A stretch of 63,976 nt of DNA, the filler included, from Hausera hauseri (taxonomy: Eukaryota): NCBI GenBank assembly GCA_046269625.1. It is 12 parts of 12 records of this genome, joined end to end, with 100 filler letters (N's around TTAATTAATTAA, not from the genome) between each part and the next. Parts side by side here need not be neighbours in the genome. Positions count along the whole stretch, not along the records: positions 43,135 to 50,163 come from JBJURY010042888.1; 11 more parts are not named here. The stretch is one strand, 5' to 3'. Made by a program: the position numbers and the translations under genes. Below, piece after piece: positions 14,854 to 63,200 of the stretch. The notes beneath the pieces are model-generated. The model did no database searches, was not told the origin of the DNA, and was given only the letters and a program-made list of their open reading frames with translations. How positions within the stretch are numbered: position 1 is the first letter of the stretch; each line of letters opens with the position of its first letter.

Positions 14854-14859
14854 ATAGCC

Positions 14860-21329: not shown

Positions 21330-21543
21330 ATATTGTTATTCTTTGCTATTCTTTGTTTAATAAATGTTATATAGAAAGGTCGTGTTGTCTTCTTGATCAA
21401 ATAATATGGTATATAGGATAAGGCCAAGTAAAACTAAGTAACTACTATATAGGCTAAGACCAAGTAAGATCAATAAATTTGAAATTTGAATAAAAGTCAA
21501 TACAATGCGACATTTACTTGCATTAGTTTTTCATTATTTCTAA

Positions 21544-32003: not shown

Positions 32004-32103
32004 NNNNNNNNNNNNNNNNNNNNNNNNNNNNNNNNNNNNNNNNNNNNTTAATTAATTAANNNNNNNNNNNNNNNNNNNNNNNNNNNNNNNNNNNNNNNNN
32101 NNN

Positions 32104-33929: not shown

Positions 33930-36394
33930 TGAAGATTGGGAAGTATATGCATTAATCGACACCGAATCAGAAAAATCATTTATAAAATATGAATCTATAC
34001 CAACCACATTGCGAGACCAGTTATGTCCGCCCGCCCCATCGCACCCAGGTAGCATAGGAGCATTTGGACAAGTACCGAGGCCAAAATTGAAATGGACTCC
34101 TACTGTGTATATGATGGGCCAAGCACTTCAACATGAATTCGCGATAATGGATCAGTTAACAGACAATGTAGTACTAGGTTGCGACATACTGAAGCAAATA
34201 CCAGGGATGGCAATTAATGTGCATAGTGGAAAATTAATTGAGCTCGAGCCAATAAAAGGGACAAAGGCAATAAAGGAAAGGAAATCAGGCGAAGTATGGA
34301 TTCCGGTGGATGAGGACATTCCGCCTAGAACCGAAATGATAATATTTGCACAAATTTGACAGGACGAGGACCTACCAGTATATTTCGAGCCTCAAGAGAA
34401 TATTGATCCAAATCTTATGTTTAACAATATTCTATGTAGAGTAATGACGGGACAAATACCTATCAGACTAATGAATAATGCACCAATTCCCGTAAGATTA
34501 CACGCTAGAACTACTTTAGGTCACACTTACAGAATATCGGCAGTAACAATAGAGGAGAAACCATACAAGTGTGCCGAATTTCCACCTCACGTGGAGCCCA
34601 AATTCTCTCCCGAAGCGTATTGCAAATTCTACGAATTATTGTGTAAATTCCGTTCGATAATAACGCAAAACGAAGAAGACATAGGTAGAGCAGGGGCTCT
34701 AAGATTAACGATTCCATTGAGGAAAAAACCCGGCTCAAATGACGAAATCGATCTAGAAGAACAAAAAATGTTCAAATGGTACGCGCCTCCTCACTCATTG
34801 AGACCGAAGATAACTAAAGAGGTAGAACGAATGTTAAAGGCCGACATAATTCGACCAAGTTATCGATCATGATATTCACCTATACTTATGGTTAAGAAGA
34901 AGGGAACTACAAAACATAGATTTTGTATAGATTATCGGGCACTAAAAACGATAATAATGAAAGACGCATTTCCCTTGCCATCGGTAAATAAAGCTTTAGA
35001 CAGACTATCAGGAGCAAAATGGTTTACCACTCTCGACTTACAATCGGGATACTGGCAGGTAGAAATTGAAGAAGAAGATTGATATAAAACAGCGTTTAAA
35101 ACACATGATGGCGTATACGAATTTAATGTTATGCCTTTTGGCATCACCACCAGCCCAGCTATTTTTACTAGAATGATGAATAAGATGCTCATGGGACTTG
35201 ATCATGCATTTGCATACTTAGACGACGTGATGATAGCATCAAGAACGGAGGAGGAACACTTAAAGGACATTGAAGATACACTCATGCGGCTAGAACAAGT
35301 AGTTCTAAAACTAAAATCAAAGACATGTAAATGGGCATAGAACGCAGTATCGTACCTCGGACACCTAGTTGGAGAAGGAGGATCAAAACCGCATAAATAA
35401 TTTTTAAATAAAGTATCCGATTGTATGCAACCGCAGAATCAAAAAGAGTTAAGACACTGGTTAAGCCCATATGGATATTATGTCACTTATGTACCAGACA
35501 ATTCAAAAATGAACGCACCACTATATCGCCTACTCAAAAAAGGAACGAAGTGGAGATGGACAGAAGTGCAACAAAACCAATCAACGAAATGAAGAAAGTT
35601 TTGACAACGAACCAGTTTTAAAATACCCGGATTTTAACCTACTATTCATCATTAAAACAGATGCAAGTAAAGAAGGCATAGGATGAGAATTAACTCAGAA
35701 ACGAGAAGAAGAAGAATTAGAACATCCCATAGCCTATGGAGGACGTTCATTAAAGAAAGCAGAAAAGAATTATTTAGTTAACGAATTGGAAACGTTAGCT
35801 GTAAAGGAAGCACTACGACACTTTAATGTCTACGTCTATGGACAAAAGATTATCATAGTTACTGATCACAAAGCAGTTACAACATTGAAAGGACAAGCTA
35901 ATAATCCAACATGCAGATTAAACCGTTGGATTGAAGAAATCTCACGATATAACATTAAATTTCAATACAAACCGGGTAATAAACACGTTGACGCCGACGC
36001 ACTGTCAAGATGAAAGACAAAAACGAGTGCAATCACCACAATAAAAAAGCCACAACTCGAACAGCTGATCGAACGACAAAAAACTCTAATATCGAATAAG
36101 ACAATTAGAATTACAGCGGAGCAAGCGAAAGATACGGTCATTCAGCAAATTATTGAATTCGTACAAAACGACAAAATGCTAAAAGGACGGCAACTGAAAA
36201 AGCATTTACAGAAACACGGACGTAAATATCGCGCATCAAACCTAGATAACATCCTGTATTACAAACGGAACGGAAGAAGATTAGTAGTCATTCCAAAAGG
36301 ATTACGCACCGAAGTACTCATGGCTGAACATGACTCGTATTTAGCTGGACACATGTTGTGGAAGAAGCCATTGGAAAGAATATTAAATAAATAC
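33930..36394 (+). pseudogene. pol: Ty3/Gypsy pol (protease-RT-RNase H-integrase N-terminus), decayed
   Basis: ALIDTESEKSF (protease, ~33950), VVLGCDIL, RFCIDYRAL, LDLQSGYWQV, YLDD, TDASK, TDHK, DADALSR, integrase Zn-finger start EHDSYLAGH. Confidence 0.92.
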
Positions 36395-43034: not shown

Positions 43035-44311
43035 NNNNNNNNNNNNNNNNNNNNNNNNNNNNNNNNNNNNNNNNNNNNTTAATTAATTAANNNNNNNNNN
43101 NNNNNNNNNNNNNNNNNNNNNNNNNNNNNNNNNNAATACGCAGGAAAAGAGGGTGATGTGTGGTGCCGCGGTAGGGGACACAACTTGTGTCCTATCTACA
43201 CCCATTCATGATCAGATCAATTAGAAACAGATCTAATACTCAACACCCATAGATGAGCAGATCAAATAGAAACAGTCGAATACTCATTGTGCTCCTCCAC
43301 CAAAATTTATCCGTGCTAATGTTACTAATTCTAACGCTCAATCCTTTGATGTAGTCGACTGTCTCTCCATCTCTAAACAACTTTCAGCCAGTGTTCAAGT
43401 CAACTTCCGCTCCAAAGGCAGATACTGAAGTCAGCTCAAATCCAAATTTAGATGTTTTATATTCATTTCGTCATATATAAAAACTATCACGTCATTTCGC
43501 ATTTTTACAATGTTCTCTTTCAACAGGCAGTGCAGTTCGTCTCAAGTCAATTACGTCATCTCACACGTCCACAACTTCCCTTGGACGCGTTTCTAATCGA
43601 AAGACGCTTGATTGTACAAAAAACTATATAAACATTTGTATATGCATTTGATTGTAGAGAATTGATTGAAAAATAATTAATAATTTTTTATTTTAAATAA
43701 TAAAGCCTAATTCAGTACCTGTTTTTCTCTTCATTTTGGATTTAACTTTGGGAATTAAGTCATAAAATTGGTGTCAGATTCAATCAACAGTTATACTTTG
43801 TTCACAAGAAATGACCAACGATAGCATTACACCTTTTCAACAGAATTCTAATGAAAGTTCTTTCGAGGGGATTGAAAATTACAGTAATGGTAAGAATCTT
43901 CAGTCAAATAGATAAAATCGTAAAACTATTCCAATACCAAATGGTATAATGGATCAATTAATAATGGCTACAGTAGAAATGACAATTACGGATTTGCTTA
44001 TAATAAATCCACTTGGGAAGATTTCGTTGGTTTAACGATTAGAACAGGATTGAATGAGACGGATATAGCTATGAAAAATAATTCCTGTGTAGAAGTACTT
44101 CATACGGTTAAAGTTGATACTATTGTAATACCATGCCATAGAAAATTGAAATTTTTAATGATTTCTGCTGCAAAAAATTCCTTGAAATTACTCATCAGTG
44201 AAATACGGTTATATCTAATTACAAACATTCTTCATGTAAACTTGAAAAGGATGAAAGTAAAAAAGTGCTAAGAAACTGTGCCATGACATTAAACTCTACA
44301 ATCTAATAGAT

Positions 44312-45440
44312 TTGGATCCTCTCATCGCCCAAGATTATACATGTCATTTGTGGAAAAGCAACAAGGTTTCGAATAAACATTTCTGTAACATTGCTGTGAA
44401 GATAAACACCAATGATCGTCAATCGATTGAAAAATGTGGATCAGATATATGCACAGAATCCGTTTATGCCTACTGTAAAACGAGTAAAATTGGAAGTGAG
44501 TATGTGGGAATTCATAATGTATCAAAGTCAGCGTTGGCTTGCGATAAATGGATCAAATACAAATCCAAACTCCAAGATACATATTCAAGGTCATACAGTG
44601 ATAAAAATTATTGTCGTAACCCAACCTATGATACTGAAGGACCATAGTGCTATGCCACTGATAACAAAATAACAAAGGAACATTGTAATGTTTCTCGTTG
44701 TTATAATGCTGCTCCATTTGGAAATCTAACAAAGGATTTCAAGGAAAGTCCTAATAATGTTTTTTGTTTAACGAACACCACTGGCGAAGTTTACAAGGGT
44801 TCGAAAAACACATCAAACATTGGAGAATGCCAGGGACGGAATGATACGAACTATGACGAATTAAATTATGCAGACTCACCCAATCATAACTTTTGTAGAA
44901 ATTTTGGTGGACGAAATAGACCATGGTGTTATGTAGAAAGTCTAAAGCAAAACTGGTCATAAGGTGATATTCCATTATACAAAGATTTCAATGATTGGAA
45001 AGTATTTGATGCTTCAAAAGCAATAGATGGTAACTTCGATCAGTCCTTGGGGAATTGTGCATTAACTCAGTCATTCAGTTCAAGCGACAAAGTGTATCTA
45101 ACATGGAAATGGTCGGTAACAGTCCTTGTAAAAATCAAAGGAATTAGGATTTATCCATCACGAACCAATCTCAGTGACTCATCTGGTCACTGTGTGTTAC
45201 TGTACAGTACTAACAATTCAACAGTCATCATATTCAAAATGATCCACAGAAAAACAACCTCGCGTTTTGTGCTCCGCGAAGTTCAAATATTCACAATTGT
45301 AGAAACATCAGAATGTTATAGTAGCCAATATGGCGTAGATTACGTATGGAAATGGAAAGTTTCTATAAGCAACGTCTGTAAGAATTGGAAAAACTATCAT
45401 AAATTTAGTGAGCTAACCTTTCTGGAGGGTTTGAGTAATG
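44312..45440 (+). pseudogene. Kringle-kringle-fucolectin (FTP/F5-8)-kringle pseudogene
   Basis: CKTSKIGSEYVG...CDKW...KNYCRNPTYDTEGP*CY; second kringle NHNFCR...RPWCYV; ASKAIDGNFDQSLGNCALT; third partial ECYSSQYGVDY; stops and frameshifts. Confidence 0.8.
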
Positions 45441-45760
45441 ATCAGAATGTTATTTCGGAAGTTAGTGGTGCCAACAAATTTTCTTCTAATAATAAATCAC
45501 GACAAAATAAGTATCACGGTGATAACCGCGGATGTACATTTCGATCTAACCAATATCATGAACGTAATCAACGGACCGATGTAAAAGAATCACAAATTGA
45601 GACAACACAAAACACATTTTGGCCATCATTTTTACCAAATGCTGAAATGACAGCTGGCAACACGCTTAACTCAGCTCTTCATTTAATGTTTTCCAAGATT
45701 TCCGTATATATATCTTGGTATCATTGACAAGTTAACCAATGTGCTACGGACACATACAAT

Positions 45761-46738
45761 TTGTCAACACAACTAAACTCAAAATTAGCGTCTTATATTT
45801 TCGTCTCAGACAATTGCAACGGTTCTTGCATTCTGACTAATTTGAAACGAATCCATGAAATAAAAAATGCAAATCGACTTATTAGTTTGGTCCCTTTCAG
45901 TGGAAAGTGGCCGCGAAAGTTACACTCCATCGCATTTCATCTAACCGAAAATAATCAGGAAAATGAGGTAGTCTTACAATGCCTGGCCAATTTCAATTTT
46001 CTCCTGTCCCATATTCAATGTTTCGGAACTCAGGAATTAATCATTTGGTTGAAATTGTCTTCAAAACGTTATCCATCAAATCAAATAAGTGATATTATTA
46101 AGAGTTGTGTAGTGTTTATTGAATCATGGTTGGATTCCGATGGTTTGCAATTACTAGGACAAAAAATTTTTGACGGATGTATTTTTCTATATAATATACT
46201 TGAAGTTATGGAAGGATTGAGACATTTTAATTATAACAAAAATGAAATAGTACAATACTTCAAATATACGAAACAGCCTCGAGTTTCGATCAAATATTTC
46301 ATTAACAATAATACTGAAAGTCGTTATCAAATGCCAATTTTGAAAAATTTATTTAAAGATGATCATAATTCAGACGATAAAGATGATAAAAACGTGTTGG
46401 AATGTTTTAGTTGTGGCCAAAATTCTCCAGATAATAATAAAACAAATGGAGAAATTTTCAAAGAGTGTTCGATGGGTAAACACGAGTCAGATGTCAAAGT
46501 TGAAAATTATTCAATGATTAAAACACCTAAATTCGACTCTCAATTATATGCCAATCCCAACATCTTATCCATCAACAAATTTCCTTCTCGGTTCATCAAA
46601 GTTGACTACAAAATCATTCGATACACCTACTACGGAATTATCAACTGCTTCAGCAACCGCATCTCTAGTAACTTCAGAAAACGATGGAAACCAGAAGTAG
46701 ATGAATGCGCCCTTTTCAACCAGTTTTATGCCGGATAA
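45761..46738 (+). CDS. Hypothetical 325-codon open frame, unknown function
   Basis: Unusually long stop-free frame in AT-rich DNA; non-ATG start; no motif recognised; may be chimeric. Confidence 0.35.
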   Translation: MSTQLNSKLASYIFVSDNCNGSCILTNLKRIHEIKNANRLISLVPFSGKWPRKLHSIAFHLTENNQENEVVLQCLANFNFLLSHIQCFGTQELIIWLKLSSKRYPSNQISDIIKSCVVFIESWLDSDGLQLLGQKIFDGCIFLYNILEVMEGLRHFNYNKNEIVQYFKYTKQPRVSIKYFINNNTESRYQMPILKNLFKDDHNSDDKDDKNVLECFSCGQNSPDNNKTNGEIFKECSMGKHESDVKVENYSMIKTPKFDSQLYANPNILSINKFPSRFIKVDYKIIRYTYYGIINCFSNRISSNFRKRWKPEVDECALFNQFYAG

Positions 46739-46934
46739 TCCAGGTTCATTGGAGCCTACCACGAATACTGCAGATACAAAGCCTACAATAATTGCGGGTG
46801 TCTCAGACCTCACAGTCCATTGGAATTTTTCAAAGTAATTTTATGCTAGGATATTTTTCTTTGTTTAAGGAGCATTCGATAAACTGTATAGCTGAGGGAC
46901 CGAGCTTGCCCGACCCCGCTGCATTGCATCCCTT

Positions 46935-47154
46935 TCTCTTCTTATTTTTTACAATAATAAACATGTGTATACATTGAGGGTTGCATGCAAACATGCGGCA
47001 CACACTTTATTCTGCATTTTTATCTTTTTTCGGCTCTTCCGATTTTTGTTGCATGCGCAATGGCCTGACTCTGTTACCTTCCGACTCTCTGTTATCTTTT
47101 GCATTCAGAAAACATTCAATAATTTTGACTATTCATTTTCGTATCTGTGGTGGA
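46935..47154 (+). other. Ubiquitin-like domain ending RICGG, in frame with Gag
   Basis: LLIFYNNKHVYTLRV (frameshift) ...FCCMRNGLTLLPSDSLLSFAFRKHSIILTIHFRICGG aligns by eye to ubiquitin [35 protein letters not shown]. Confidence 0.6.
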
Positions 47155-50100
47155 TCAGACCCTGTTCCTTCTGCCGAAAAATTAACCAAAACTAGATCTG
47201 GTCGTCGTCCTGACGACGTCACGCTAAATACATCTCCAAATCTCCCTTGCACGGATTTTTTTCTCGACAAAACGAATTCTAGCCGTACCTGGTTACAATT
47301 CTATTTGCAATGGCTTAAAGCCAATCATATCACATACTCCTTTTTGCAGGCGAGCAGCTTGCTGCTACTACTTCCAGCTAATATCAAGCAGCAAATCAAT
47401 AATGTGGCTGAAATACTAACCTCTTCAAATCCATATTATATGCTTTATGAATCAGTTCTGCACATTACCGACCCTTTTATTGACAGCATAATTCAGAAAT
47501 ACTTTAATGAATATGCCATCGGAAATCAAAACCATCGGATTTCCTTAAAACTGCAATATCCCAACTGAGTTCTTTAGGCGTCACTACTATAAACAATGTT
47601 AATTTTCTTCGTCGGTATTTTCTTTCATCCTTGCCAACCTCCATCAGAGCGCTGCTCACGGGATTAGACGACTCAACTGCCCTTCAAAAGCTCGCCTTAT
47701 TGGCAGACAAAAGTTTTGACATTTTTCCATCTAATAGTTCACAGCCAGTAGCTGCAGCAACCGCTCACACACCATCACGCACAGATAACACTTTATTTTC
47801 ACAACAACTGCATATTATGCAGAAGCAAGTCGAAACACTCCAACAGGCAATTTCTGCGATCACAGCCAAACTATGCGACTTATCCGTGCCTCGAAAAAAC
47901 AAAAACCATGTTTCGTGCAATCGTAGCTTTTCCAGACACTCTACTTGGTCCAAATCTCGAGATTGTAGAATAATTTGCTTCTATCACAATAAATTTGGTA
48001 GAGAAGCAAGAAAGTGTTTTAGGCTGTTGATTTTACGATGAACTTTATGTAGTAGACAACCAAATCTGCATCTATCACACAAAGTATCAATCAAAGGCTA
48101 GGTCGTGTGTGCCAGGATTCACATATTTTAAAAAGAATTCTAGTTTTTCTCCGTCTTCTTCGCCTCCTCGTATTTATCATTCGTCTGCTTTTTCCCAACA
48201 ATCCCCAAAAACCAGTAATGCCATCAGATGTCACGGCCAATTCTGGTATAGGCAATATCGCTCAAACTTCTGGCCGTTTCGACAGCACCTCTGCAGTCTT
48301 TCTGTTGAAAGCTGAAATGATATTTGGAGACACCTCGCACATAGACTTCCTTATCGATTCAGGAGCTGCCTTTTCACTTCTTCCTTTGTCTTTCGCTCCT
48401 ACATCTAACACAGTTTTCTCTCCTCCACTCTTCACTACCTGTGGTCAACCCTTGAACATTGTAGGCATCACTAAACTGTCTTCCTCATTCTCCAACCTTT
48501 CAGGAAAATTCTCCTGAAAATTTCACATAGCCAACATCAGATCGCCCATAATAGGCGCCGATTTCCTGGCTGCATACTATTTGTTAGTCGACTGAAAGCA
48601 TAGATGCCTTCGTAGAATCCCCGCTGCAAATTCTTACAAATGTTTACTAAACGAACAGTCTGACACTTTGTCTTCCTCTGTTCATTCAAATATCAATTTG
48701 ACATGCTGCTCATCGGCTGATAACAACACGCTTAATAATTCTTCAATATTTTCTATTTCATCAAGTAAGAACAAATCAATCTTTAAACAATCGATTGAAA
48801 CGAATATTATTAACAAAGTGTTCTGTGATTCTGTATCGATTACAGCCATTGACTCTTCCACTAATATGCCCTCATCATTCTTATCGCTGGAAACCAATCT
48901 TAAATCCTTCATCAAAACTTTTTGCTTCCGCACTCTTAAGAAGGACATCAATTTCAAGCCTCATTCTACAACTTATCACCACATAGTCAGCGAACACCAA
49001 AGACCTATTAGACAAAAGGTAAGGCCACTGTTACCTCGTAGACAAAAAGCCGTTAAATTAGATTTCAATGAACTCGAAAAGGCTGGCATTATTCGAAGAT
49101 CCAAATCACCATGGGCTTCGCCATTGCATGTAGTAACAAAGAAAAATGGAACTTACAGACCATGTGGTGACTATCGGCAGTTAAATAATCTTACAGTCAT
49201 GGATGCTTACCCGCTACCTCTAATAAATGACATCATGCACAGTCTTACCAACACTAACACGTACTCCACAATTGACTTGCATAAAGCATATCATCAAATT
49301 CCGGTTGCACCTGATGATATTCCAAAAACTGTTATTATTACTCCATTTGGCCTCTACGAATATATCTTTATGCCATTTGGTTTACGTAGTGCTTCTAAAA
49401 CTTTCAAACGACACATTGATACCGTACTTTCAGGCATAGACTTCGCTCATCCATATATTGTTGACATATTAGTTGCCTCTACGTCCGTCAAACAACATCA
49501 AGAACACCTTCGCATTATTTTTCACAGATTGCATCATAGCAATTTGCAAGTCAACTTCTCCAAGTGTCATTTCTTTCAAAATCGTGTTATTTTCCTAGGT
49601 CACGTCATTACTCCTAACGGCCACTCTCCACAACTGGACTGACTACATCAATTGAAGAACATAATTCTGCCGACGAATATCACGGACATGAGAAGTTTCT
49701 TAGACATACTCCACTTTATCCACAAATACGTACCACATTGCTCTGAGCTTACAGCACCTTTTGCACCTTTAACATCTGGAACAAAGAAGCAATTGATCCA
49801 CTGGACTCCTGATTTGGTAACCAAGTTTGATCACTGGCGTGAGGGTCTTAAAACCGTAGAAATACTGGCTTATCTGAAACCCAAGGCAGATCTTATTCTT
49901 ACAACCAATGCCTCAACCACAGCTATTGGCGTTGTACTACACCAGATTTCTAATGGTGTTGACTTGACATTAGAATTGTAATCTAGGAAACTTACACAAC
50001 CCGAGATCCGTTACTCCACATTTGACCGTGAGTTACTTGCCATAGTTCTGGCAGTAAAACATTTCAAACACTTACTTCTCTCTCGTCCATTCGTCATTCA

Positions 50101-50163
50101 AACTGACCATAAGCCTCTGCTGCACATCATGTCGTTAAAAGAGCCATCACCAAGGCAAGAGAG
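46935..50163 (+). mobile_element. CsRn1/Kabuki-type Gypsy retrotransposon, copy A (Ubl-Gag-PR-RT-RH), truncated by contig end
   Basis: CHCC-type Gag motifs CFYHNKFGREARKC and CIYHTKYQSKARSC; FLIDSGAAFS; RPCGDYRQLN, IDLHKAYHQI, YIVD (decayed YxDD); YSTFDRELLA, TDHKPL. Confidence 0.9.
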
Positions 50164-50263
50164 NNNNNNNNNNNNNNNNNNNNNNNNNNNNNNNNNNNNN
50201 NNNNNNNTTAATTAATTAANNNNNNNNNNNNNNNNNNNNNNNNNNNNNNNNNNNNNNNNNNNN

Positions 50264-50301
<38 letters not shown>

Positions 50302-50309
50302 AATGATGG

Positions 50310-50340
<31 letters not shown>
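50264..50340. repeat. (GAT)n microsatellite
   Basis: About 25 GAT units with two variants. Confidence 0.97.
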
Positions 50341-50404
50341 ACATTCGCCGGATGATATTTACGTTATCACTTTAGCCCAGTGTTTTGTACGTGTCCGAAT
50401 CCAG

Positions 50405-51274
50405 TCAAATAGAAGCCAATAGTTGTTTACGGTCTCCGCCAACATATACAGGTTCGGTTAGATCCGTTAAAATATTGATTCGATGTAATGCTTTGTAGGG
50501 ACATGGTTTGTGTTTAGCGACAATGGGCCGTCCGCCGTGGCCGCCGCCGGTTTGACCAAATTCTCGTTTCTTAAAACCCAGATTCCGTGCCAATAGTTCA
50601 TCAAAGGCAAAATATGTAACATTATCACGTAATATAAACGAAATACGACCATTAGAGTTTAATTCAAATGTCTTGAGAGTCAATTTATCTACTGCCTTGA
50701 TGGTTGCGCAAAATTCTGTTTCCGTTTCCGTAAGAAAACCAGTGCCTGTTGTATGCGAGTAAAAGAATGATTCAGTCTTTTGCCAGTTCACTCTAATATC
50801 GGTAGTTTTCATGGAAAAGTTCAATTTTTCACTAATTGTACCATGTCCATCGAACTGTAGACCTTTCGAGCGCATACTGACAGATTGAAAACTCCATGCC
50901 TGAGCGTCGGCTAGTGATTTAAATTGAAATTCAATCGTATGTTTGTGTTTTAGCACCAATCGATTGTTTAAATGAAAAATATAAACTGGGAAATATTGCC
51001 GTTGGTAATTGCGAACGTGAAATGTTCCATTAGAGTCTTGGACTAACTGAAAACGACTAGATTCAGGAGATTGTCTTACTAAAGTATAGTATATTCCATT
51101 GTTCTCACGTATTTTTATTGGTGAAAATGTAAACGTAAATTCCGCCAAAGCAACTTCCCAGGCTCCCTGGCATAAGTCGAGCGGCTGGTCCAACGCCATG
51201 GTAAACCGTTCAGCGGTATTGTTGTTGTCATGTTCTGATAATGTGTTACTATCAAGTATTAAATAAATGCTCAT
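50405..51274 (-). CDS. Polinton/adintovirus minor capsid protein (penton), probably C-terminally truncated
   Basis: N-terminus MSIYLILDSN...NTAERFTMALDQPLDLCQGAWEVALAEF and C-terminal INILTDLTEPVYVGG...LL match Maverick penton patterns. Confidence 0.8.
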   Translation of the reverse strand: MSIYLILDSNTLSEHDNNNTAERFTMALDQPLDLCQGAWEVALAEFTFTFSPIKIRENNGIYYTLVRQSPESSRFQLVQDSNGTFHVRNYQRQYFPVYIFHLNNRLVLKHKHTIEFQFKSLADAQAWSFQSVSMRSKGLQFDGHGTISEKLNFSMKTTDIRVNWQKTESFFYSHTTGTGFLTETETEFCATIKAVDKLTLKTFELNSNGRISFILRDNVTYFAFDELLARNLGFKKREFGQTGGGHGGRPIVAKHKPCPYKALHRINILTDLTEPVYVGGDRKQLLASI

Positions 51275-52293
51275 TACCCATTCTGCGATGCAAATATCCA
51301 ACTCGGTGTAGTGTATCCGTGCCACTTGATAAGATATTGTTTATTCGAACCTTTGCCGCGTGAACGTAGAATTTCCTGAAGACGATACACATCAGATTTT
51401 TCCGGTAGTACTTGCAGTTCCTATTTCGTCAAGTATTTCGTCACCATTTTCATCATCTAAAACGTACATAACAGGTGTTTGTTTTGTGTTGATTGCCGAA
51501 ATGGGGAAAACCTCGTCGCTCCAGTTCTGATTGATATTCTTAATGAATGGTGTCGTACTCAGCTTTGAAATACGTACATAATCACCGATTTTATACTTGG
51601 AACGACGTTTAGTTGGTCGTCGTCGTTGTCGGTTTTGATAAAGCCACATGTCCAAATCATCGATTACGTCAACCTGCCATAATCCATTGATGCCACGGTG
51701 TGATTGTACGCATGAATAATATCCGTCAGTACATCTATCCAGCGTTTGTTGCCTTGCTTCGTAAAGAATTTGTTTAGGCGACCGCGCAATGTTCGATTAA
51801 ATCGTTCAACGAGTGCCGCCTTGTATTGGGAAAACACCGAGTAGTGGTTTACGCCGAACCGTTTCAAAACCTCTGCAACGTAGGCGTTGTTGAATTCCTT
51901 ACCCAAATTTGTTTGTAAATGCTTCGGCGGCTGTTGTTGCATCAGCAGTGTCTGAACAGCGTAGGGCATTATCCTACCGGATTTAGATTTCACAGCAATT
52001 GCACGTGCAAAACGGCTAAACAAATCAACACATATCAGCACGTACCAATACCCATCGTTGATGCTGGCGTACGGAATCATTTCCATCACATCCATTTGCC
52101 ATACATTATTTACACCGGCAGCACGGTGTGCACGAGTTGAAAACCGCCTTCTTATCGGTTTGTTTATGCTGTATGCTAACTATTTCCCGAGCCAACTTTG
52201 GGTCTGTTACCGAGTCTGTTTGACAGTCTTTGCTAGTTTGTTGACGCCAGTATATCCGACGGAATAACGCAGGTCGAACCACACATTGCTCAT
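51274..52293 (-). pseudogene. int: Polinton rve integrase with C-terminal chromodomain
   Basis: QMDVMEM, VDLFSRFA, LQTNLGKEF (catalytic D to N), VERFNRTL, KIGDYVRISK, YLIKWHGYTTPSWI; frameshifted. Confidence 0.9.
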
Positions 52294-52436
52294 CGTTGCC
52301 GCGATGGTGTTGGTTTTGCTCGCATTACAACAATTTGAACGAAACGTAAATGAAAGATTCGGCAAACTGGGACAGAAAGATAAAAACCATGCACCCATAT
52401 CGCCGAATCATTATATACTTACCGTCATTGTTCATA

Positions 52437-52800
52437 CTATGATGTTGTTGCAGAACCAATGAGTCCACCCAGTAATGACGTGTCAATCGATAGAATTGCA
52501 CCAAGGAATCCGCCGTCTTCCTGGTACATGACCTCCCGTTTAAGTCGTTTACTACTGGCGTTGGCAAGGCCAATGAGTCGTTTTCGATACTTTAGTAAAT
52601 TCTGCTTTTCACTACAAAATGTCAACCTGACCCACAACGATATTGTAAAATTTCCATCAAATCGTCTACTAGAAACTGCGGGAATGATCGTAACATATTT
52701 CGCTTATGTCTCGTAGGTGCCTTGAGCAAAACAATAAAGTACGGCTGACTATGTGTGAATCGCATGTTTTTTTGTGGATGTATTAATACTGCTGATGATG
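52437..52800 (-). pseudogene. Polinton small basic virion/core protein with C-terminal GGFLG amphipathic segment
   Basis: KQNLLKYRKRLIGLA...KREVMYQEDGGFLGAILS; a Q-x-GGFL motif is typical of these Maverick ORFs. Confidence 0.65.
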
Positions 52801-52824
52801 AGATTTAGTTATTTGTAACCGTTG

Positions 52825-53007
52825 TCAGTGTGACGGTAATTTGCGTCTAGTTGCTGCTTTTGTTGTTCGAAGCACCGAATTGATTAATCGCTTCACTGTA
52901 GCGGCGCTTCTTTTTGATACACGTTTTTTGCCATCGGACACCCGCTTGCTAGTAGGTTTACGTTTAACAATTGTTTTTCGGAAATTCTTTATTTTTATCA
53001 TAATCAT
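52825..53007 (-). CDS. Small highly basic protein, possible DNA-condensing core protein
   Basis: 60 aa, K/R-rich, co-oriented directly downstream of the ATPase. Confidence 0.45.
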   Translation of the reverse strand: MIMIKIKNFRKTIVKRKPTSKRVSDGKKRVSKRSAATVKRLINSVLRTTKAATRRKLPSH

Positions 53008-53051
53008 GTCGTCGATTTTCGAATTTGTTTATAGACACATAGACCACCTTT

Positions 53052-53663
53052 CTAATTAAAAATATCTGTTCGTACACGCATGTCGTCGGGACACTCTTGT
53101 GTAAAGTCAATAAACAGATATCCATGCCGTTTGTTCGTAGCACCAGGATATGTATCTATCAAGTAGGCTCGATTGTGAGGAAATGCTTGTCGTGCAACAT
53201 AATCAATGATAGTCAGATCACGGGGATTTTTAAACAACACCAGATAGTGTACGTTTAGATTTCTTGTTCGATGCTTTCCGCCCTGATGGAACATGTTTTG
53301 CGTAATGAAAATAACCGTTACGCCACGGTGTCGTGCAATCATCGTAAAGAGGTTGTTGAAGTCGGATTGTTTCGCGGCTTCCTGAAATAAATCGTCGATG
53401 GCAATAACGTCACCGTTGCGTAATCTCTCTGACCAGTTTTCATCATACCCTTCAATTACCGTTATGGATTTCAGTTTACACAATTCCCAATGTGTCAAAC
53501 CGGACTCACCATCATCACAAACACCCTGATGCCAATATATGTGATTGTGTCGCAGTAAATGGAACATTTCACGGTAGTTCTGCAATAGTTTACACATAAA
53601 GTGTGTTTTGCCACTTCCACTAAGGCCTACAATCTGGAAAATGGCGTCATTCTGCACCTTCAT
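53052..53663 (-). CDS. Polinton A32/FtsK-like genome-packaging ATPase
   Basis: Walker A GLSGSGKT, Walker B VIAIDD, ARHRGVTVIFITQ, VLFKNPRD, GYLFID, RVRTDIF. Confidence 0.92.
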   Translation of the reverse strand: MKVQNDAIFQIVGLSGSGKTHFMCKLLQNYREMFHLLRHNHIYWHQGVCDDGESGLTHWELCKLKSITVIEGYDENWSERLRNGDVIAIDDLFQEAAKQSDFNNLFTMIARHRGVTVIFITQNMFHQGGKHRTRNLNVHYLVLFKNPRDLTIIDYVARQAFPHNRAYLIDTYPGATNKRHGYLFIDFTQECPDDMRVRTDIFN

Positions 53664-53697
53664 CTAATAATACAACCTTTCCTCATCACATGATTTG

Positions 53698-53743
53698 TTT
53701 ATAATCGCTTTACATACGCGCATATAAATAGTTATGGTATAAA
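53698..53743. promoter_or_regulatory. Putative bidirectional TATA promoter
   Basis: TATAAA on the minus strand at 53698-53703 near the ATPase ATG; TATAAATA at 53723-53730 and TATAAA at 53738-53743 ahead of ATG 53757. Confidence 0.5.
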
Positions 53744-53756
53744 CACTGTTTCTACA

Positions 53757-54230
53757 ATGATAGCTAATATCAATTATCGCTATGTTACCGAGTGTGACAT
53801 TATTAGCACACTACCTTTTAATCCGTGGAAGCCAAGGCAGTATGTACTCCAGTGTCCACCGGATTTTACATGCATCGTATTTCAATCGGAAAAGTGTCGT
53901 ATTATAGGCTGTCGCAAACTAATCACAGCAGACAACAGTAAACTGCTGCCATTCGGAATTGTCATTGACAAAATCCAATCAATAACGGTAACGACTCAGT
54001 TAGATTACCACCAAACAATCAATCTGTACAAATTAGCAATGGCCGCTACTACTGAATTTACGTATAAACCCGAACTATTTCTTGTACTGAGACTTACATC
54101 ATTTCGCCCAATTTGTGTCAATGTGTTTAACACTGGAAAAATTGTTGTACTCGGTATTCGAAGTGGACTATGAACCTATTATTAATCAAATTAAAAATCA
54201 CATAAATGTTTTACTGAATTACAATAATGT
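53757..54230 (+). CDS. Divergent TATA-binding-protein-like gene; last helix displaced by a frameshift near 54165
   Basis: Two TBP half-repeats: IANINY...FNPWKP...TCIVFQSEKCRIIG and KIQSIT...INLYKLA...YKPELFLVL...VNVFNTGKIVVLG (TBP: YEPELFPGL...LIFVSGKVVLTG). Confidence 0.8.
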
Positions 54231-54697
54231 ACATTGCACAACAACAAACTATAAATACCATTCCCATGCCCAATCAGACATTACTGCCATGGAAGACGAC
54301 GATAACGACAAAACAATTCTACTTAATGATGCCAATGATGATGAAAGTTCAGATTGGTCGTGGTTGTTTGGCTACAACAAAAAGGACGATTCTAATGTCA
54401 GTGATGGAACCACCTGTCCGACAATTAGAAAAACCGGGTGATTGTCTGCAGGCCGATTGTCTGGAAACGAAACAGGAATTTGCTCAGAAAGCAGCAGCAG
54501 CAGCAGCAGCAAAACCAACGTTAAAAAGGCAAAATTCAATGATTGGAATACGTAAACGAAAATCAAAACCGTCGTGCCAAACACAAACATTTTTACCNNN
54601 NNNNNNNNNNNNNNNNNNNNNNNNNNNNNNNNNNNNNNNNNTTAATTAATTAANNNNNNNNNNNNNNNNNNNNNNNNNNNNNNNNNNNNNNNNNNNN

Positions 54698-55752
54698 TCT
54701 TGAACATATAATTCATTAAAAAAAAAATAATAATAAGTCTCTTTTGTTTGTATATTCTCTTATTGTCTATTTTTCCCATTGAAACATAGTCCTTTTGGCC
54801 AGCACATAACCTACTATTTATATCGTCTTGATAAAACTCAGTAACACAGTTTATTACTTGCTCACTTAATTTGTGGCCTTCTCTTTTGAATATTTCTTGT
54901 AAAATACCTTGTTCCTTTACAAGTTCTCTTGTCTGCTGCACAAAATATTCAGAAACGTTAAATTCCTTGCTTATTTTACTACGAGACCAAGAATCTGGTA
55001 ACAGGCTGATAATTTTTACTTTTCCATTCTTATTGGCAACTTTACATTTTTCTTTCAGTTTACTTATAAGTTTTTCATATTCATCGTCAAATGAAGTAGA
55101 CATATATGATGAATTCGCCTCCAAATTTTCACTGAAAGTTTCTTCTAACTTTCTTTTGACAGCACTGGAAATTTTTTCAGTTTTTTTTCATTAATGCTAT
55201 ATGTCTTTGATCTTTATTTAATTTCATTATTTTATTCATAGGAGATAAATCTAATGATTCACATACTGTATCAACTCTATCGAAAGTTTTATTTTTATCT
55301 ATCAATAATTCATGAGGATTAAATTCAGTATCATTGTCATCATTACTTATGTTTTCTACATGAGTTGTTTGAATAAATAATTTAGTGGCACAATTAGGAC
55401 ACAGTGACTTACCTGGAATTAAATCAACAGGTAGATTTGTAGGCTTAGACACATGTTCTAAAAGAATTTTTCTCAATCCATTTTTAACAGGTTTTTTATG
55501 AATTTGTAATGGATCACAACATTTTTCCCCAAAAATGTGATGAAATTTAACAAGATATTTATACTTGTGATAATGACAAATACTATCTATTTCTTTAGAT
55601 ATTGTAAGTTTAAGCAACATCTGATCATCTTCTGACAATTCACTCACTCCAATCACTTCCTCAGGCACACTTTGATAATCCTGCTTATGGCACTGCTCAC
55701 TACTGAGAACACCCACAAAACAGTTCATAGTGGAAATCACAATGGAAAACAA
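54698..55752 (-). pseudogene. DNA transposase 5' half, Sola2-like, with Cys-rich N-terminus
   Basis: CCDP...HKKPV...LIPGKSLCPNC, then LLPDSWS...FYQDDINSRLCAGQKDYVS...KQKRLI; frameshift at the A-run near 55180. Superfamily call is from memory of motifs. Confidence 0.55.
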
Positions 55753-56139
55753 AACTAAAAGAAATCACATTAAAATGCACAACCTTTCATTAGATAAGAC
55801 AAATGTCAACTGAGTTCTCTTAATAAAAAGTTAAATAAGTTCAGGAATGAGCAACTTAATACATGAAATATTTATCCACTTACTCATTACTTGTAAACAT
55901 GATAGAACAATGAAATTTGTTCTCAGTCACAGAATGGAATTCACATCACTTAAAGTTGTAGTTAAAGACATAATATATTTATACACTGACTCATTAAAAA
56001 TAAATAGGACAGGATTATGAAAATATGTTCTGAATCATAGAATGAAGTATGCAATTGCACATGGCTTATTAAAAATAAACAGGACAGGACATGCAAATTT
56101 GTTCTCAGAATTAAGTAGTTAAAGTTAAGGCATGATATA

Positions 56140-56963
56140 CAGGGTGTGTCACAATTCACTCCCTGGTTTGGAAGGCTTATAAAAAAAAATATATTACCAA
56201 TACAGCAACAAAGTTGACTTTACTGGAGAAAAAAACATTACAAGTTTTGTTTCATAAATGTGTGAGTAGATGGCGCCACATGATCTAGAGCAGAAGCAAA
56301 TAACAGAAACACAGGCATTCCAAAGAGGCAATGGCGTCGTTCACAGGTCCACAGAAAGCCTACTGCGTGTTAGAATTTGCAAAAAGTGAATCTGTTGTAA
56401 CAGTTCAAAGAAAATTTCGTACAAAATACGGATTTCAACCTCCGACGAATAAAACTATTCATGCGTGGTTTCGGAAATTTCAGGAAAGTGGTTGTTTGTG
56501 TGATGGAAAACGAACTGGTCGTCCAGGCCCTTCGGAGGAAAAGGTTGATCGTGTACGAGATGCGTTTGTGCGAAGGCCGCGACAGTCAATTCGTCAAGCA
56601 AGTGCGGAATTACAGATTCCGGGAAAAAGTGTTTGGCGTATTTTACGAAAGAAACTGCAAATGAAACCCTACAGAATTCAATTAATGCAACATTTGAGTC
56701 CACAGGATATGAATGTTCGTTTCGATTTTTGCTTGAATGTCCAGAGGATGATGGAGCAGGAGGATTTTGCAGATAAATTGATTTTTAGTGACGAATCAAC
56801 ATTTCATACGTGTGGAAAAGTTAACAAACACAACGTCCGCATTTGGGGTACTGCCAATCCTAAGGACGTGATGACTCACGTTCGTGATTCGCCTAAAGTT
56901 AACGTTTTTGCTGCTATGTCGTCATCACGTGTGTACGGCCTATTTCTCTTCATGGAGAACACT
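56140..56963 (+). mobile_element. Tc1/mariner element, 5' half (TIR, DUF4817-type HTH, first catalytic Asp)
   Basis: TA then CAGGGTGTGTC at 56140; SVVTVQRKFRTKYG, GRPGPS, KPYRIQLMQHL, LIFSDESTFH, VNKHNVRIWG. Confidence 0.88.
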
Positions 56964-57293
56964 GGGATTTTAGATAGCACCAACCCACTCCATATTAGGG
57001 CTCTTCACCATGTTTATCTTGCAAGAATAAGCAGATCTGTAGATGAGTTTATTAGCCAATGGAACCACCACAGTTTAAGGACAATGGACAATAGGTCCCC
57101 ACTTCAGTTGTGGACTATTGGGATGCTGCAACTTCCTGACCATGAAAGACCATCTACTATTGCTCATGTTCAACATGGTCACAGTTTTCACCAATGGGAT
57201 GAAGAGTTAGGGCAAATTAATCCCTTAAATGAAGATGGAAACCATGGAATAGAACTTTATTTATCTGCATGTACCATACTTCAAAATATTTAG
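56331..57293 (+). CDS. Chimeric ORF: mariner transposase N-half fused in frame to an IS3EU-like integrase-core C-terminus
   Basis: 320-aa frame; after FMENT it switches to GILDSTNPLHIRALHHVYLARI...WNHHSLRTMDNRSPLQLW. Confidence 0.7.
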   Translation: MASFTGPQKAYCVLEFAKSESVVTVQRKFRTKYGFQPPTNKTIHAWFRKFQESGCLCDGKRTGRPGPSEEKVDRVRDAFVRRPRQSIRQASAELQIPGKSVWRILRKKLQMKPYRIQLMQHLSPQDMNVRFDFCLNVQRMMEQEDFADKLIFSDESTFHTCGKVNKHNVRIWGTANPKDVMTHVRDSPKVNVFAAMSSSRVYGLFLFMENTGILDSTNPLHIRALHHVYLARISRSVDEFISQWNHHSLRTMDNRSPLQLWTIGMLQLPDHERPSTIAHVQHGHSFHQWDEELGQINPLNEDGNHGIELYLSACTILQNI

Positions 57294-58015
57294 TTTTCTA
57301 AGTCATTATGTTCATCTTTAAATGATGATGTTTTCTTTTTATTATACATGGATAAACTATTTTGAAACTAATTTCAAAAGTTATGTTGTAAAGTTTTTGA
57401 TTTCTTGCATGAAAGGAGTGTACAAGACTAAGGACAATGTATATTTACACATTTTCCTTAGTCCTGTACACTCTTTTCATGTAATGCTGAAACAGGAATT
57501 TTCTTTTCATGACATAACTGACGTCATATCAACAAGATGTATCACATATTTTGTTATGGCATTAATTTTGAATGTATTACCACTAATAACTTACTTTCAT
57601 GTTAAAAATAAACATTATACCAAACATTAACTACTTAGTTTTCAAATTAATAAATTTGTGATCTGGTATTCTCACAAAAAATTAAATAAGGGCCTCTAAA
57701 CCAAAATTAAAACCAAGGCACAAGAAAAAATACCAAATACAAGTTTTTAACTCAGGAGTTCTTTATTTGAACAGGCTCACTGAAAAAAAAAAATTAAGTG
57801 CCACGTACAATAGTAAAAACTTTAACCATGTGCACTTTAAAAAATGTGATAAAAAACATTCAAATGTCTCTGAAAATGAGTAAACACACCTTTAGATTTT
57901 ACTTCTTTTTACCTATGCAGTATATGCTTCATTTGTGCCAAATACTATTATGAATTATGAAAAAAAACACACCAGTTTTTCAGTAAACAGTAAAAAAAAT
58001 TATAACTGTAACTCA

Positions 58016-58228
58016 CAGTTGTCGAATTCCGGTCCTCAAGGGCTGCTGTCCTGCATGTTTTCTAGTTTTCCTGCTCAAACAGACCTGATTTGCATGAATG
58101 GATGATTAAAAGGTTTCTACAGAATTTAAGGACCTAATTGAAACACTGAATAAAGTGTGTTGAAGCAAAGAAACAATGAAAACATGCAGGATAGCGGCCC
58201 TCATAGCGACCAAAGTTTGACATCCCTG
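58016..58228. mobile_element. hAT-type MITE with 8-bp TSD
   Basis: Imperfect long TIRs (GGGCTGCTGTCCTGCATGTTTTC / GAAAACATGCAGGATAGCGGCCC), CAG...CTG ends, TSD GTAA(C/T)TCA at 58008-58015 and 58229-58236. Confidence 0.85.
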
Positions 58229-58267
58229 GTAATTCAAGCTAACAGATTGTTATCTAGACACTACCTC

Positions 58268-58500
58268 TTACGCTCTGCCAAAACCTGGAGAGTTTCGTAT
58301 GGCAAAATCCATGTCAGTTTTGAAATCAGTGTAAACATTGTGGAAGGGTATACGAAGAATATTCTCACAAGTATTGGCCACTGGAAACCGAGAATAACTG
58401 ATGAACTCAAGACTTGGTTTTGGAGAAAATCCAAGTGCTGGAATGGCGTCACATCCGGTGAAGAAAACAAGAACATCCTCCAGACAGACCCCATCTCCAA
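58268..58500 (-). CDS. Terminal exon of a HECT E3 ubiquitin ligase (G2E3-like); not in the ORF track
   Basis: Acceptor TTTTCCAG then GDGVCLEDVLVFFTGCDAIPALGFSPKPSLEFISYSRFPVANTCENILRIP...RNSPGFGRA*; catalytic P-x-A-N-T-C intact. Confidence 0.85.
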
Positions 58501-58877
58501 CTGGAAAACATTAAAAACAAACCATTATTTATCCCATTAAGTTTTCTGCTAATTTCAGAACACTCCAGTATTAATTAGAATGCATTAAAAACAACACTAG
58601 TCTTTATTCAGGAAAATGAGAACTCATTTTAAAGTTTGCTAAGGATTCATATGTCAAAATAACATCATACCATTAAGTAGAACACATCCATCATGATCAA
58701 GCAAAACCACAACGACCACCACCCCCATATTAGCAACAACAACTGACTGATGAATACAGGATACAGTATATATGAATATGTAAAATGGACACATAACACA
58801 AAACAAATGTGAACAACAAATCCTAAATTAATACAGGGAATAATGATTTTAAAGATGTCTTAAAATGTATTGTTTTA

Positions 58878-59401
58878 CAACGGAAGTAGAGAGCAGACTT
58901 TTTCCACAATTAATACTTTTCTATAGTTTTCTCGTGATACACATATTATGTTTTTATCACAACGAGGAGCGTATTCTCATGATAACAAGTTATGATTTTC
59001 TTGTGTATCATTCAGTAACCATGGAAATGGCCCGATCCCCTCAGCTGGTGACCAGTAAAGTTTATTATATCATCCAGTTCAAGATCACTTTTAAATGCCT
59101 GCTGATCTGCAGTCAGGCCACCTGTCTCCTCAAATGACAAAGGCTGATATGAAAGTTATCTGTACAAGACAAAAAAATTGCAATATCAGTTGGTGAAACA
59201 ATACAAAATGACACAAAATTATGAACAAATAATAGGTTGCCTTCAGGCCCAGGCCCCCTTGCAAAATAGATCTGCCATCTCAATGTTATTTAGACAGACA
59301 GACAGACAATTTATCGATGAACAGTCGAGGGGACCAGGCCGTCTCCATGGTTACTGAATGGACGAGAGTAAAACCATCTGAAAATTAACTCGTTATCTCG
59401 A
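58878..59401. mobile_element. IS3EU-like non-autonomous fragments in opposite orientations
   Basis: Minus ISLCHLRR...DIINFTGHQLRGSGHFHGY*M and plus EQSRGPGRLHGY*M, each next to GATAAC(A/G)AGTTA-type sequence. Confidence 0.45.
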
Positions 59402-60059: not shown

Positions 60060-63000
60060 TTATTTTGAAGCAACGGTTTGTGGGGTCGGTAAACTGCAAG
60101 GATAATTGAAAGAGTTAAGAAAGGTTGATGTAAGTTCAGTTGAAGAGTCAGGCGTGTCATCAACAAAGAACGCCGGATTAACATTAGAGATGTGAACATT
60201 TTGATCTTTGCCGCTTTTATTTATGGTAACTGTGTGGGAAGTCATGTTTAAAACTTTAAAATGTCCTAAATAGTGTGGTTGAAATCCGGATGGTATAGGA
60301 ATTTTGCGTTGAATAGCGATTCGGACAAATATGACTTATCACCATGTATGATTTTGCAGAAAGAGTCCCGGCTTAAATTGACGAAATAGTTTTGCGCAGA
60401 TCGTATCGTCTCGTCGGTCGGTGTGTTATCTAAGTCGGTTAATTCGAAAAGTGAACGTATCGTGGTGCTAAAGCATGCTTCTGCGGGTGCACAATCGGTG
60501 GTAGTGGACGGCGTGTTGCGCCATCTGGGTAATACGAAAGGAAGGGCTGTTGTCCAGTTAGCGTGAATTTTGGCGAGAATTTCTAATGAAATTTCAAGAG
60601 TTTAGCGAAAACGCTCCAATAAGCCGTTTGACTGGGATTGGTATAGGGTTATGTGCTAAGTGGTTTATGCCCAGTCGATTAACTAAGGATTTGAATAGTT
60701 TAGATTCGAATCGGAGGCCTTCATCTGTTATTATGTAGCGTGGTGAACCGAACCGGCTAATCCAAATCCTTAGGAAGGAGTCGGCAATGGAGTCTGTGTT
60801 TATGGAGCGCAAAGGAACAACTTCGGGCCAACGGGATGCGCGGTCCATCATCGTTAAGACAGATTCAAAACGTGACGTACAGGGAAAATGAAATAATGGT
60901 GGCTTAAGATGCTTAGATACCTTGAATTTTTGGCAAGCCAAACATTGCCTAATCCAGTCCTGTACGTCGTATCTCATCGATGGCCATGTTACGTGGCTTT
61001 TAAGGATGTTGGATGTACCACTCGCACCTGTGTGATGCAAAGAATGAATGTGATTGAATGCTGTTTGTTGGAGAGATGGTACCAAAATGGGCAAGTGATT
61101 TCCATGTTGCGAGGTGTCTATTTCTACGCCATCGATGACTTGGACTAATTTGTATTGGTTAAGTATTTCCGTGGTTGGAGGGTTTTGGACTAATTGGTCT
61201 TTGGAAAAGATAGATTTTATACCTATCGCTCCAACTGACCGAGACAAAAGGTCAGAAATTAAATCATCGGTACCAGAAATATGGAAAGTTTTAAAATTAA
61301 ACGTTGACAAGTACGAAATATGACCTTCTTGTCGGAATGATGGTTGCTTCATGCTCATAATGTGAACAAGAGGCATGTGGTCAGTTTGTATGGTGAAAGA
61401 TCGAGCGACAAGATGTGAAAAGTGTGAGTGCTTAAACGATATCTAACAATTCCCTGTTGGAATAGTGACATTCTTGTGGTTGTAATTTCAGTGAAAAGAA
61501 TTATCGTGGCTCATTTGTGCCTTGGTAGGTTTGATGGAGAACTGTGCAGACTGCTGTTGTGGAAGGGTCAGTTGTTAGGATTAAGTTAGCATCGGGTCTT
61601 AGGTAGGCAAGAATTTCCACTGTTTTGAAATTGTTACGAAGCTCGTTAAATTGGTTTACTAGTTCTGGAAATTGAGTATCAGCTACTATAAAAGTCCATG
61701 TAAAATTTTCAGAAAAGGAGTGTAGTTTAAGAGATTGTTGAGGCGCCTAGTACACGCAAGGGTTGACAATTTGCGATATGCCGTTTAGTTGTAGATGATG
61801 AGATGGTTCATATTTTGGTAGACACAGGTAGAAGTGATAATACCGCTCCAGAATCAATTAGGATAAAAGGCACATACTTTATAGACTGTATTTGTGCGGA
61901 TGTTCGGTTGAAAATAGTTGCCTTTGCGAGTATGCACCGAAACATCTGGATGCTTTATTCATTTTTTGAGGGAGATGAGTTTACAGCATTAAAAGAATTA
62001 CTAAGATGTGTTAGGTCCGTTAACGAACGTGCATCCAGTAATGCAGTTTCCTGTTTTATTGTTAAATTTGCCGTGGTAAATACATACAACGTCGGATGTT
62101 CGAAAAGTAGGTGCATAAAATTTGCAACCTAAGCAACATTTGGTTGCATTGTTTTTGAATTTGGTGTGGTAATAACACACCATCGGTCGCGCAGGCGACA
62201 TAATAGATCTGAAATTGTGCGATGAAGCACGGATACGATCCGTTGCAATACGACCTCGTCACAGCATAGACAGGACGTCTAGTTTAGGTGTTAAAGCTGA
62301 AATTGCTTGGTGGGTCACAGCGTTTTCAGAGCACAGAGAGTTTATTTGGTTGNNNNNNNNNNTTCAACGCTGAAGTGTCTTCATCAGGTTGAGCTGTAGA
62401 TGGTTGTAGTGTGGCGGCAACAATAAGCGTAATGCGTGTGTGTAATATTTCATGACTTTTATCAGCTAGCTGTGCTAGCTTTTCTAACGATGCTGTGTCC
62501 TCGACTATAGTTAAGAGTGCTCGCATGTTTCTTGGTAAGGATTGCTGAAAATATCTGCAAGTCAGCGTTGTTTGTTTGATTCACACCTAAGGTGTTCAAT
62601 TGGGACAAAGAAATTCGTAGAAATTCTGAAGGTTTTTGACTCCTTATGGTGTTTTCGTTGAAATATTTATAGATAATGTTGTCTAAAGATTGTTCCGTTA
62701 TTTTTAAGACTGAATTAAAGAGAGTGTTGTATGGGTCACTGCTTTGAAAGATTTCTGACACGTTGGAAAGCTGCGACTTATTGTTGGAAGGCAGAAGTAT
62801 AAGCAAGCTGTTTGCTTTAAGGAAAGAGTTGACGATATTATTTCATTTTAACCAGGCTGTATGGAAGTTCAGCCATGTTCGGCTGGAGTGTTGTTTATCA
62901 TCAAAGTATTCTACGCAGGGTCGAATTACTGCAGATGACGGGGATGGAGCTGAATTTAGAGGTACGCTGATAGTAGGAACGACGACAAGGTCTTGTTGGT

Positions 63001-63200
63001 CGTTAGGCGAGTCTTTTGGATCACACCTTCCGAATAGACGAAGATGGATAGTTAACAGAAGCGTGGACGATGTAGAGGTATAAGACGGAAATTTGTTAAG
63101 TTGATTTGGTATGACAATACATCAGACAAGTTTTTAACAGTGGTATGTTTGTATATGTAAAGGGAATATATTTGTTTATTTTGAAAAAAAGAATGAGGGA
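60060..63200 (-). mobile_element. CsRn1/Kabuki-type Gypsy copy B (Ubl-Gag-PR-[RT deleted]-RH-IN)
   Basis: Gag homologous to copy A (SSRTWL, LAQLADKS); CYYHTKF...C...C and CIYHGKF...C...C; LIDSGAVLS; TDHMPL; H...H...C..C; MDRASRWPE, ITDEG. Confidence 0.9.

Follow-up and report, generated by a model that had tools for sequence, protein, structure and literature searches.

Ubiquitin domains occur in some protist non-LTR elements. Fixed extra domains are described as rare in LTR retrotransposons (PMC9289625). Among the latter, CsRn1-type elements are defined by one CHCC box in Gag with the signature C-X2-H-X9-C-X3-C, and a −1 frameshift into pol has been reported for CsRn1-like elements (both in the available text of PMC2582038). 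No description of a ubiquitin-like domain (Ubl) fused to a retrotransposon Gag was found in the open-access literature (main texts, abstracts and listings): the main texts of PMC2582038, PMC12801592 and PMC5408684 do not contain the word "ubiquitin", PMC9289625 has it a single time, within a reference, and the available text of PMC10144533 treats the ubiquitination of Gag only.

Cleavable Ubl segments are known from other settings. In BVDV, a ubiquitin insertion that lacks its first residues still serves as a cleavage signal (PMC8310069). The Ubl of SDE2, which is less than 20% identical to ubiquitin, is cut by USP5, and the equivalents of residues 69 and 72 and of the terminal Gly-Gly (GG) are required for this cleavage (PMC13572447); FUBI is removed from FUBI-eS30 by USP36 (PMC8354635). 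The stretch of DNA analyzed here, called the window, comprises 63,976 nucleotides from Hausera hauseri. At 46932–47154 it was confirmed to carry a decayed ubiquitin-like domain that ends in Gly-Gly and reads on in frame into a CsRn1-type Gypsy Gag (copy A).

Two decayed elements in the window

The window strings together short contigs through 11 joins between 3964 and 59501, each a 100-base spacer of N plus TTAA repeats; since the spacers join separate short contigs, features on opposite sides of them are not neighbors. Copy A lies on the contig at 43135–50163 and a second element, copy B, on that at 59502–63976, so the two are not true neighbors. Both are decayed Gypsy elements (reverse transcriptase, RT, E 4.2e-26) and dead relics, with capsid regions that share 57% identity over 95 aa (Table 1). 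No LTR pair was found in 44000–63976, both copies being decayed and on short contigs, and a 7-mer of the tRNA-Trp primer site was not found upstream of Gag in either copy.

Table 1. Features of the two Gypsy copies, in positions of the window
Feature	Position	Strand	Evidence
Copy A, N-half of ubiquitin-like domain, strands 1-2	46932..47000	+	aligns with P0001 and P0003
Copy A, C-half of ubiquitin-like domain: helix, strands 3-5, tail HFRICGG	47001..47154	+	family profile E 1.4e-5
Copy A, low-complexity linker after GG, first residues Ser-Asp-Pro, no Met	47155..47244	+	
Copy A, capsid region of Gag (DUF7041-type) with a frame break near 47530	47245..47786	+	similarity to copy B; relatives match DUF7041
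Copy A, two CHCC-type Cys-His boxes, both damaged (frame break; last Cys missing)	47970..48126	+	
Copy A, decayed pol with a protease motif (near 48350), RT and RNase H	48127..50163	+	RVT_1 E 4.2e-26, RT_RNaseH_2 E 3.1e-08
Copy B, domain remnant, tail LTIHLRLFGR, diglycine broken	63026..63200	−	tail aligns with copy A
Copy B, Gag interrupted by stops and frame breaks; both CHCC boxes intact	61960..63025	−	
Copy B, remnant of pol with a protease motif, RNase H and integrase	60594..61861	−	

In copy A, the GG (47149–47154) lies inside a stop-free frame (46978–47568) that continues into Gag, and Met is absent from the stretch that separates GG from the Gag core. The preliminary description had quoted a peptide ending at this GG and placed the domain in frame with Gag; the peptide is present and the shared frame holds for the C-half, whereas the N-half (LSLLIFYNNKHVYTL, from 46932) is read in another frame, with the break near 47000. 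This N-half aligns with the relatives P0001 and P0003, and a structural model of P0003 has strands at 5–11 and 14–20. The spacing said to match that of ubiquitin is off by one, the quoted stretch having 32 residues vs. 31 in ubiquitin. The Ser-Asp-Pro that begins the linker is the predicted new N-terminus; the linker region has low pLDDT in the P0003 model. The pol of copy A stops at the contig spacer that starts at 50164.

The remnant in copy B is shorter and spread across three frames. It had been put forward as a diverged copy of the same domain, and this stands for the tail, which ends in a GR at 63026 in place of GG, is followed by Cys-Asp-Pro and aligns to the tail of copy A (38% over 26 aa); the N-half remains unconfirmed, its pieces scoring at background in the family-profile search described below (E 1.8–7.3) and being matched by 241, 521, and 969 of 1000 shuffles when compared with a near-ubiquitin domain. 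Two full matches to the CHCC signature were found in copy B (62025–62183) and two damaged ones in copy A. The order of pol domains in both copies is that of Gypsy elements, with protease, RT and RNase H in copy A and protease, RNase H and integrase in copy B, where no RT was seen between protease and RNase H. A 10-N gap interrupts copy B at 62353–62362. Its Gag ends at an A-rich site, AAAAAAT, at 61967 (minus), and most Gags of the branch to which both copies belong (relatives P0001–P0053) end in or near Lys-Asn; these observations fit a −1 frameshift site into pol.

An ATG lies roughly 30–45 codons upstream of the Ubl in both copies, at 46843 (plus) in copy A and 63338 (minus) in copy B, and in each case it is separated from the Ubl by a stop or frame break. 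A Pro/His-rich stretch precedes the Ubl in P0001, P0003, and P0005, and the upstream frame of copy A is loosely similar to it; together, the ATGs and this stretch are possibly the remains of a leader.

Transposon debris is abundant in the window (Pfam), whose source is probably an invertebrate animal. The contig of copy A also carries, ahead of the element at 44261–46738 (plus), a kringle-like piece (E 1e-5), a lectin-like stretch recognized by eye and a 336-codon open frame without a Pfam family. A chuvirus-type fusion glycoprotein (PF24664) at 32060–36394 (plus) lies upstream of remnants of a Gypsy-like protease, RT, and integrase on one contig. Polinton/Maverick-like fragments (DNA polymerase B, integrase, A32-type ATPase, endonuclease VII) were seen at 11100–26900 and 50400–54600, with a TBP-like domain among them at 53694–54170, and at 56304–57293 (plus) a mariner-like transposase N-terminus (DUF4817) runs into an rva_4 integrase-core piece in a single frame.

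Ubiquitin origin of the segment

By eye alone, the resemblance of copy A to ubiquitin is not significant, since the score of its alignment to the near-ubiquitin domain of the relative P0031 was reached by 454 of 1000 shuffles and copy A alone, in its natural frame or read through with X, matched 0 Pfam families. It is the relatives that settle the identity of the domain. Word-based homologue searches were nearly blind (1 match, 0 matches and 2 already known matches) and Atlas feature searches gave only leads under 0.9; a word search yielded one relative, P0001, in which a segment ending FRLRGG stands ahead of an unbroken Gag. The Ubl-Gag part of P0001 was then compared with 1.84 billion representatives, giving 1765 matches at E <=0.001, of which the best 150 were examined. 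All relatives are predicted proteins without DNA context. The query contained GG, a possible bias toward GG-bearing matches; 11 of the 33 GG-bearing matches aligned only from query residue 77 on, beyond the GG.

Against the same segment of P0001 and of P0003, the score of copy A was reached by 0 of 1000 shuffles each. A family profile was built from 26 distant segments, the near-ubiquitin member and the three closest relatives of copy A being excluded; among 1716 targets, it matches copy A at E 1.4e-5 in the natural frame, compared with E 0.23 for the top-scoring unrelated tile of the window, and it also matches P0031, P0060, P0001, and P0003. Most of this signal is lost when the last 6 residues of copy A are removed (E 0.062).

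The segment is ubiquitin-derived. At E values up to 0.1, Pfam ubiquitin was matched by 10 of 30 relatives, with P0031 alone passing the curated cut-off (E 3.7e-23). A profile of 30 proteins made without P0031 matches ubiquitin residues 3–76 among 177635 PDB sequences (~E 1e-6 per single domain; about E 4e-9 with P0031 included), and the best 60 of its 316 matches are forms of ubiquitin plus ISG15. In the AlphaFold model of P0003, two strands, a helix and three strands (pLDDT 68–91) are followed by a loose linker and a helical capsid; the model reaches Z up to 9.4 against Ubl domains, and its capsid Z 8.3–10.0 against the capsid domains of MLV, PEG10, Copia, and dArc. The AlphaFold model of P0007, for which P0031 was left out of the alignment, matches ISG15 and ubiquitin at Z 11.3–11.8 (rmsd 1.9 over 75 residues at Z up to 11.8), and an Atlas model of P0003 matches Ubl at TM 0.62–0.72. 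In a Foldseek search with the two-domain P0003 model, Ubl domains ranked first, none of them at E <=0.001 (best E 5e-3). The beta-grasp fold anticipated in the preliminary description is thus present in the models of the intact relatives P0003 and P0007, and the broken domain of copy A is tied to P0003 by alignment.

An origin from SDE2 was considered and rejected: the P0001 segment gave non-significant matches only (sole PDB match E 1.6; Pfam E 2.6). No SDE2 family is among the 25 families listed and the top profile matches are ubiquitin and ISG15, so the likeness to SDE2 is probably convergence. P0031 falls within a group with strong support (100), yet the five other GG-bearing members of this group share 16–19% identity with its Ubl, which suggests, from sequence comparison, the recapture of a fresh ubiquitin; a prediction artefact is the alternative reading.

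Distribution and conservation of the junction

A tree was made from the Gag part only, with the Ubl excluded (137 rows of unnamed Gag proteins, quick search, midpoint root); 16 of 151 proteins, in which the core was too short, were left out. Copies A and B fall within one 43-row branch (SH-aLRT 96), across which the Gags are ~21–56% identical. Among the best 150 of the 1765 matches, a GG-ending segment stands 11–49 residues before the Gag core in 33 of the 41 branch homologues, and the gene models of the other 8, which start within the core or <=33 residues ahead of its motif, are too short to show such a segment. In the same sample, the Ubl-GG tail occurs in 1 of the 94 Gags outside the branch, P0060, which alone carries it among the 14 of 94 that have >=70 residues before the core. 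Two CHCC boxes are found in 34 of 41 branch rows vs. 0 of 94 others, and the doubled box therefore marks the same branch as the Ubl; DUF7041 was matched by 24 of 30 relatives. An independent capture in P0060 was hinted at by the 137-row tree but not borne out: when 66 rows were tested, with 25 of the 94 outside rows kept, the tree joining P0060 to the branch could not be rejected (p-AU 0.60) and had the higher score (branch support 83).

In several gene models, pieces of host genes precede the Ubl: arginine methyltransferase, Rrp44 plus CNOT1, SCC3, histone H2A and 5'-nucleotidase were recognized by Pfam in P0001, P0003, P0013, P0015, and P0020, and Hsp90-like and RING-like pieces by eye in P0017 and P0060. 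They are either prediction artefacts or the trace of a tendency of the elements to take host mRNA into the leader, and they make the leader and start codon of the relatives uncertain. Such pieces, together with the lack of an in-frame ATG in the interval from the nearest preceding stop to the copy A N-half, could be read to mean that the fusion itself is an artefact, in which predictors joined ubiquitin pseudogene fragments to Gag, or that the segment is an untranslated leader. This reading is largely refuted, and we regard it as extremely improbable: the C-half and Gag share one open frame in the raw DNA of the window, the junction recurs at the distance given above in 33 relatives, seven listed members of one eight-member cluster share an open leader and the junction, and conservation falls on core hydrophobic residues.

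Between GG and the Gag core, Met is absent from 20 of 33 relatives and present in 13. Since these 20 and copy A lack such a Met, the segment is coding, and the concern that it might be only untranslated sequence is answered. The 13 with Met, and 8 branch members that begin with Met near the core, indicate that downstream initiation or loss is possible in some. The domain itself is usually not N-terminal (Met in the zone of ubiquitin Met1 in 2 of 28), and the nearest upstream Met lies 73–381 residues before the last Gly in gene models that may be wrongly spliced.

The segments have a median pairwise identity of 19%. In alignments of 32 and 30 Ubl-Gag proteins, with rows picked for GG, the sole invariant columns are GG and one Trp, and GG is conserved as strongly as the best capsid column. 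The GG at the junction, with a ubiquitin-type tail, is found in copy A and in 33 of the 41 branch homologues and is broken in copy B; the conservation that the preliminary description had looked to was thus borne out, GG making two of the three invariant columns. Within the tail, position 72 is R/K in 27 of 34 (mostly Arg) and position 73 is L/I in 32 of 34, while position 74 is variable (R 11, L 10, K 4, Y 3 and C 2 among 34), so that ordinary ubiquitin hydrolases may not accept all tails. When 30 segments, copy A included, were mapped on P0031 numbering, positions 26, 30, 50, 67, and 73 were hydrophobic in 30/30 and position 69 in 26/30, and Gly47 was kept in 18/30. Ile44 was kept in 0/30, Arg42 in 3/30 and Lys48 in 9/30, and position 70 was hydrophobic in 6/30. 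Retention of the core and tail (69, 72, 73, GG) with loss of the Ile44 patch is what cleaved fusions of the SDE2 kind show.

Most segments have Ser, Thr, Met, Gly, Asn, or Ala directly after GG, and Asp often comes next; of 34 such residues, 13 are Ser and none is Pro. Cleavage by deubiquitinases is poor before Pro. With Pro at 11.5% across the ten positions that follow, ~4 Pro would be expected after GG, a weak result given that the sequences are related.

The losses bear on two other uses of the domain. An uncut Ubl could act as an integral domain of Gag, that is, as a mimic of mono-ubiquitinated Gag, as a handle that binds the proteasome or ESCRT, or as a particle spike; the fold is well kept in the models, many integral Ubl domains are among the structural matches of P0003 and P0007, and mono-ubiquitination of Gag matters in retrovirus release as discussed in PMC10144533. 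The binding surface, in contrast, is lost (Ile44, position 70), and the invariant GG is left unexplained. An integral Ubl domain does not need an invariant GG, and this use of the domain is considered unlikely. A role of the released Ubl itself, which might be conjugated to host proteins or block deubiquitinases, E1, or E2 and in this way weaken silencing, for instance, is favored by the C-terminal GG that cleavage would expose, by the prevalence of Arg at position 72, by the closeness of P0031 to ubiquitin and by the precedent of baculoviruses, which keep a variant ubiquitin with its own function (as presented in 10.1101/756791). Across the family, no surface residue is otherwise common, and the surface that a conjugatable modifier requires (Ile44 patch, Arg42, chain lysines) is not kept. 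E1 has requirements for residues of the Arg42/Lys48/Ile44 type. The free modifier or decoy that the preliminary description had allowed for is therefore disfavored by the counts for Ile44 and Arg42, and is improbable to a like degree.

A candidate processing signal and its precedents

The domain, its fold, its position, its pattern of conservation and, in most relatives, the absence of a start Met of Gag's own are established, and a scheme for the use of the fusion can be proposed. In this scheme, a CsRn1-type branch with two CHCC boxes acquired a ubiquitin-type sequence from its host, placed upstream of Gag in the same reading frame, and retained it as a processing signal. ORF1 would be translated as leader, then Ubl-GG, then Gag, and a host deubiquitinase, most likely of the USP type, would cut after GG to give Gag a fixed N-terminus. 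The benefit might be a capsid freed from leader and tag, and perhaps help in folding or a stability that depends on the N-terminus. That the ORF is made as leader-Ubl-Gag and that a host deubiquitinase frees Gag in this way is, we infer, probably correct. A wider proposal, put forward tentatively and with rather more doubt than conviction, is that an old LTR lineage has passed the opening step of Gag maturation to host deubiquitinases, with particle assembly thereby gated by the host enzyme, and that it renews its tag by recapturing host ubiquitin.

Conservation of Ubl-GG across a branch with Gags so diverged points to a host protease step in the transposon cycle. Over thirty natural Ubls that keep only the apparent needs of cleavage could serve to map the minimum recognized by deubiquitinases and, if the wider proposal is true, deubiquitinase-gated assembly would be a new host-transposon interface as well as a supply of natural Ubl variants.

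Among described systems, the CsRn1 clade of Ty3/Gypsy (CsRn1, PwRn1, AgCR) resembles the branch in its CHCC signature, its DUF7041-type capsid and its pol order of protease-RT-RNase H-integrase; as the clade is presented in PMC2582038, the branch differs in having two CHCC boxes and a Ubl-GG before Gag. The insertions of the pestivirus BVDV are alike in that a captured ubiquitin within a polyprotein lets host hydrolases produce a defined N-terminus. According to the available text of PMC8310069, however, they are recent and near-intact, occur in single strains and lie ahead of NS3, whereas the Ubl-Gag domain is fixed across a deep branch, has diverged to ~19% identity and is followed by a capsid protein. 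SDE2 and FUBI-eS30 are similar in having a diverged Ubl with core and tail kept that is removed by a USP (PMC13572447; PMC8354635, as far as these texts describe it), but they are host genes rather than mobile elements. The 2A-like ribosome-skipping peptides of non-LTR retrotransposons are, like the Ubl proposed here as a processing signal, a borrowed device that separates an N-terminal piece; as described in PMC3708506, they belong to non-LTR elements and are based on the ribosome, whereas the device in this branch of LTR elements would be based on a protease.
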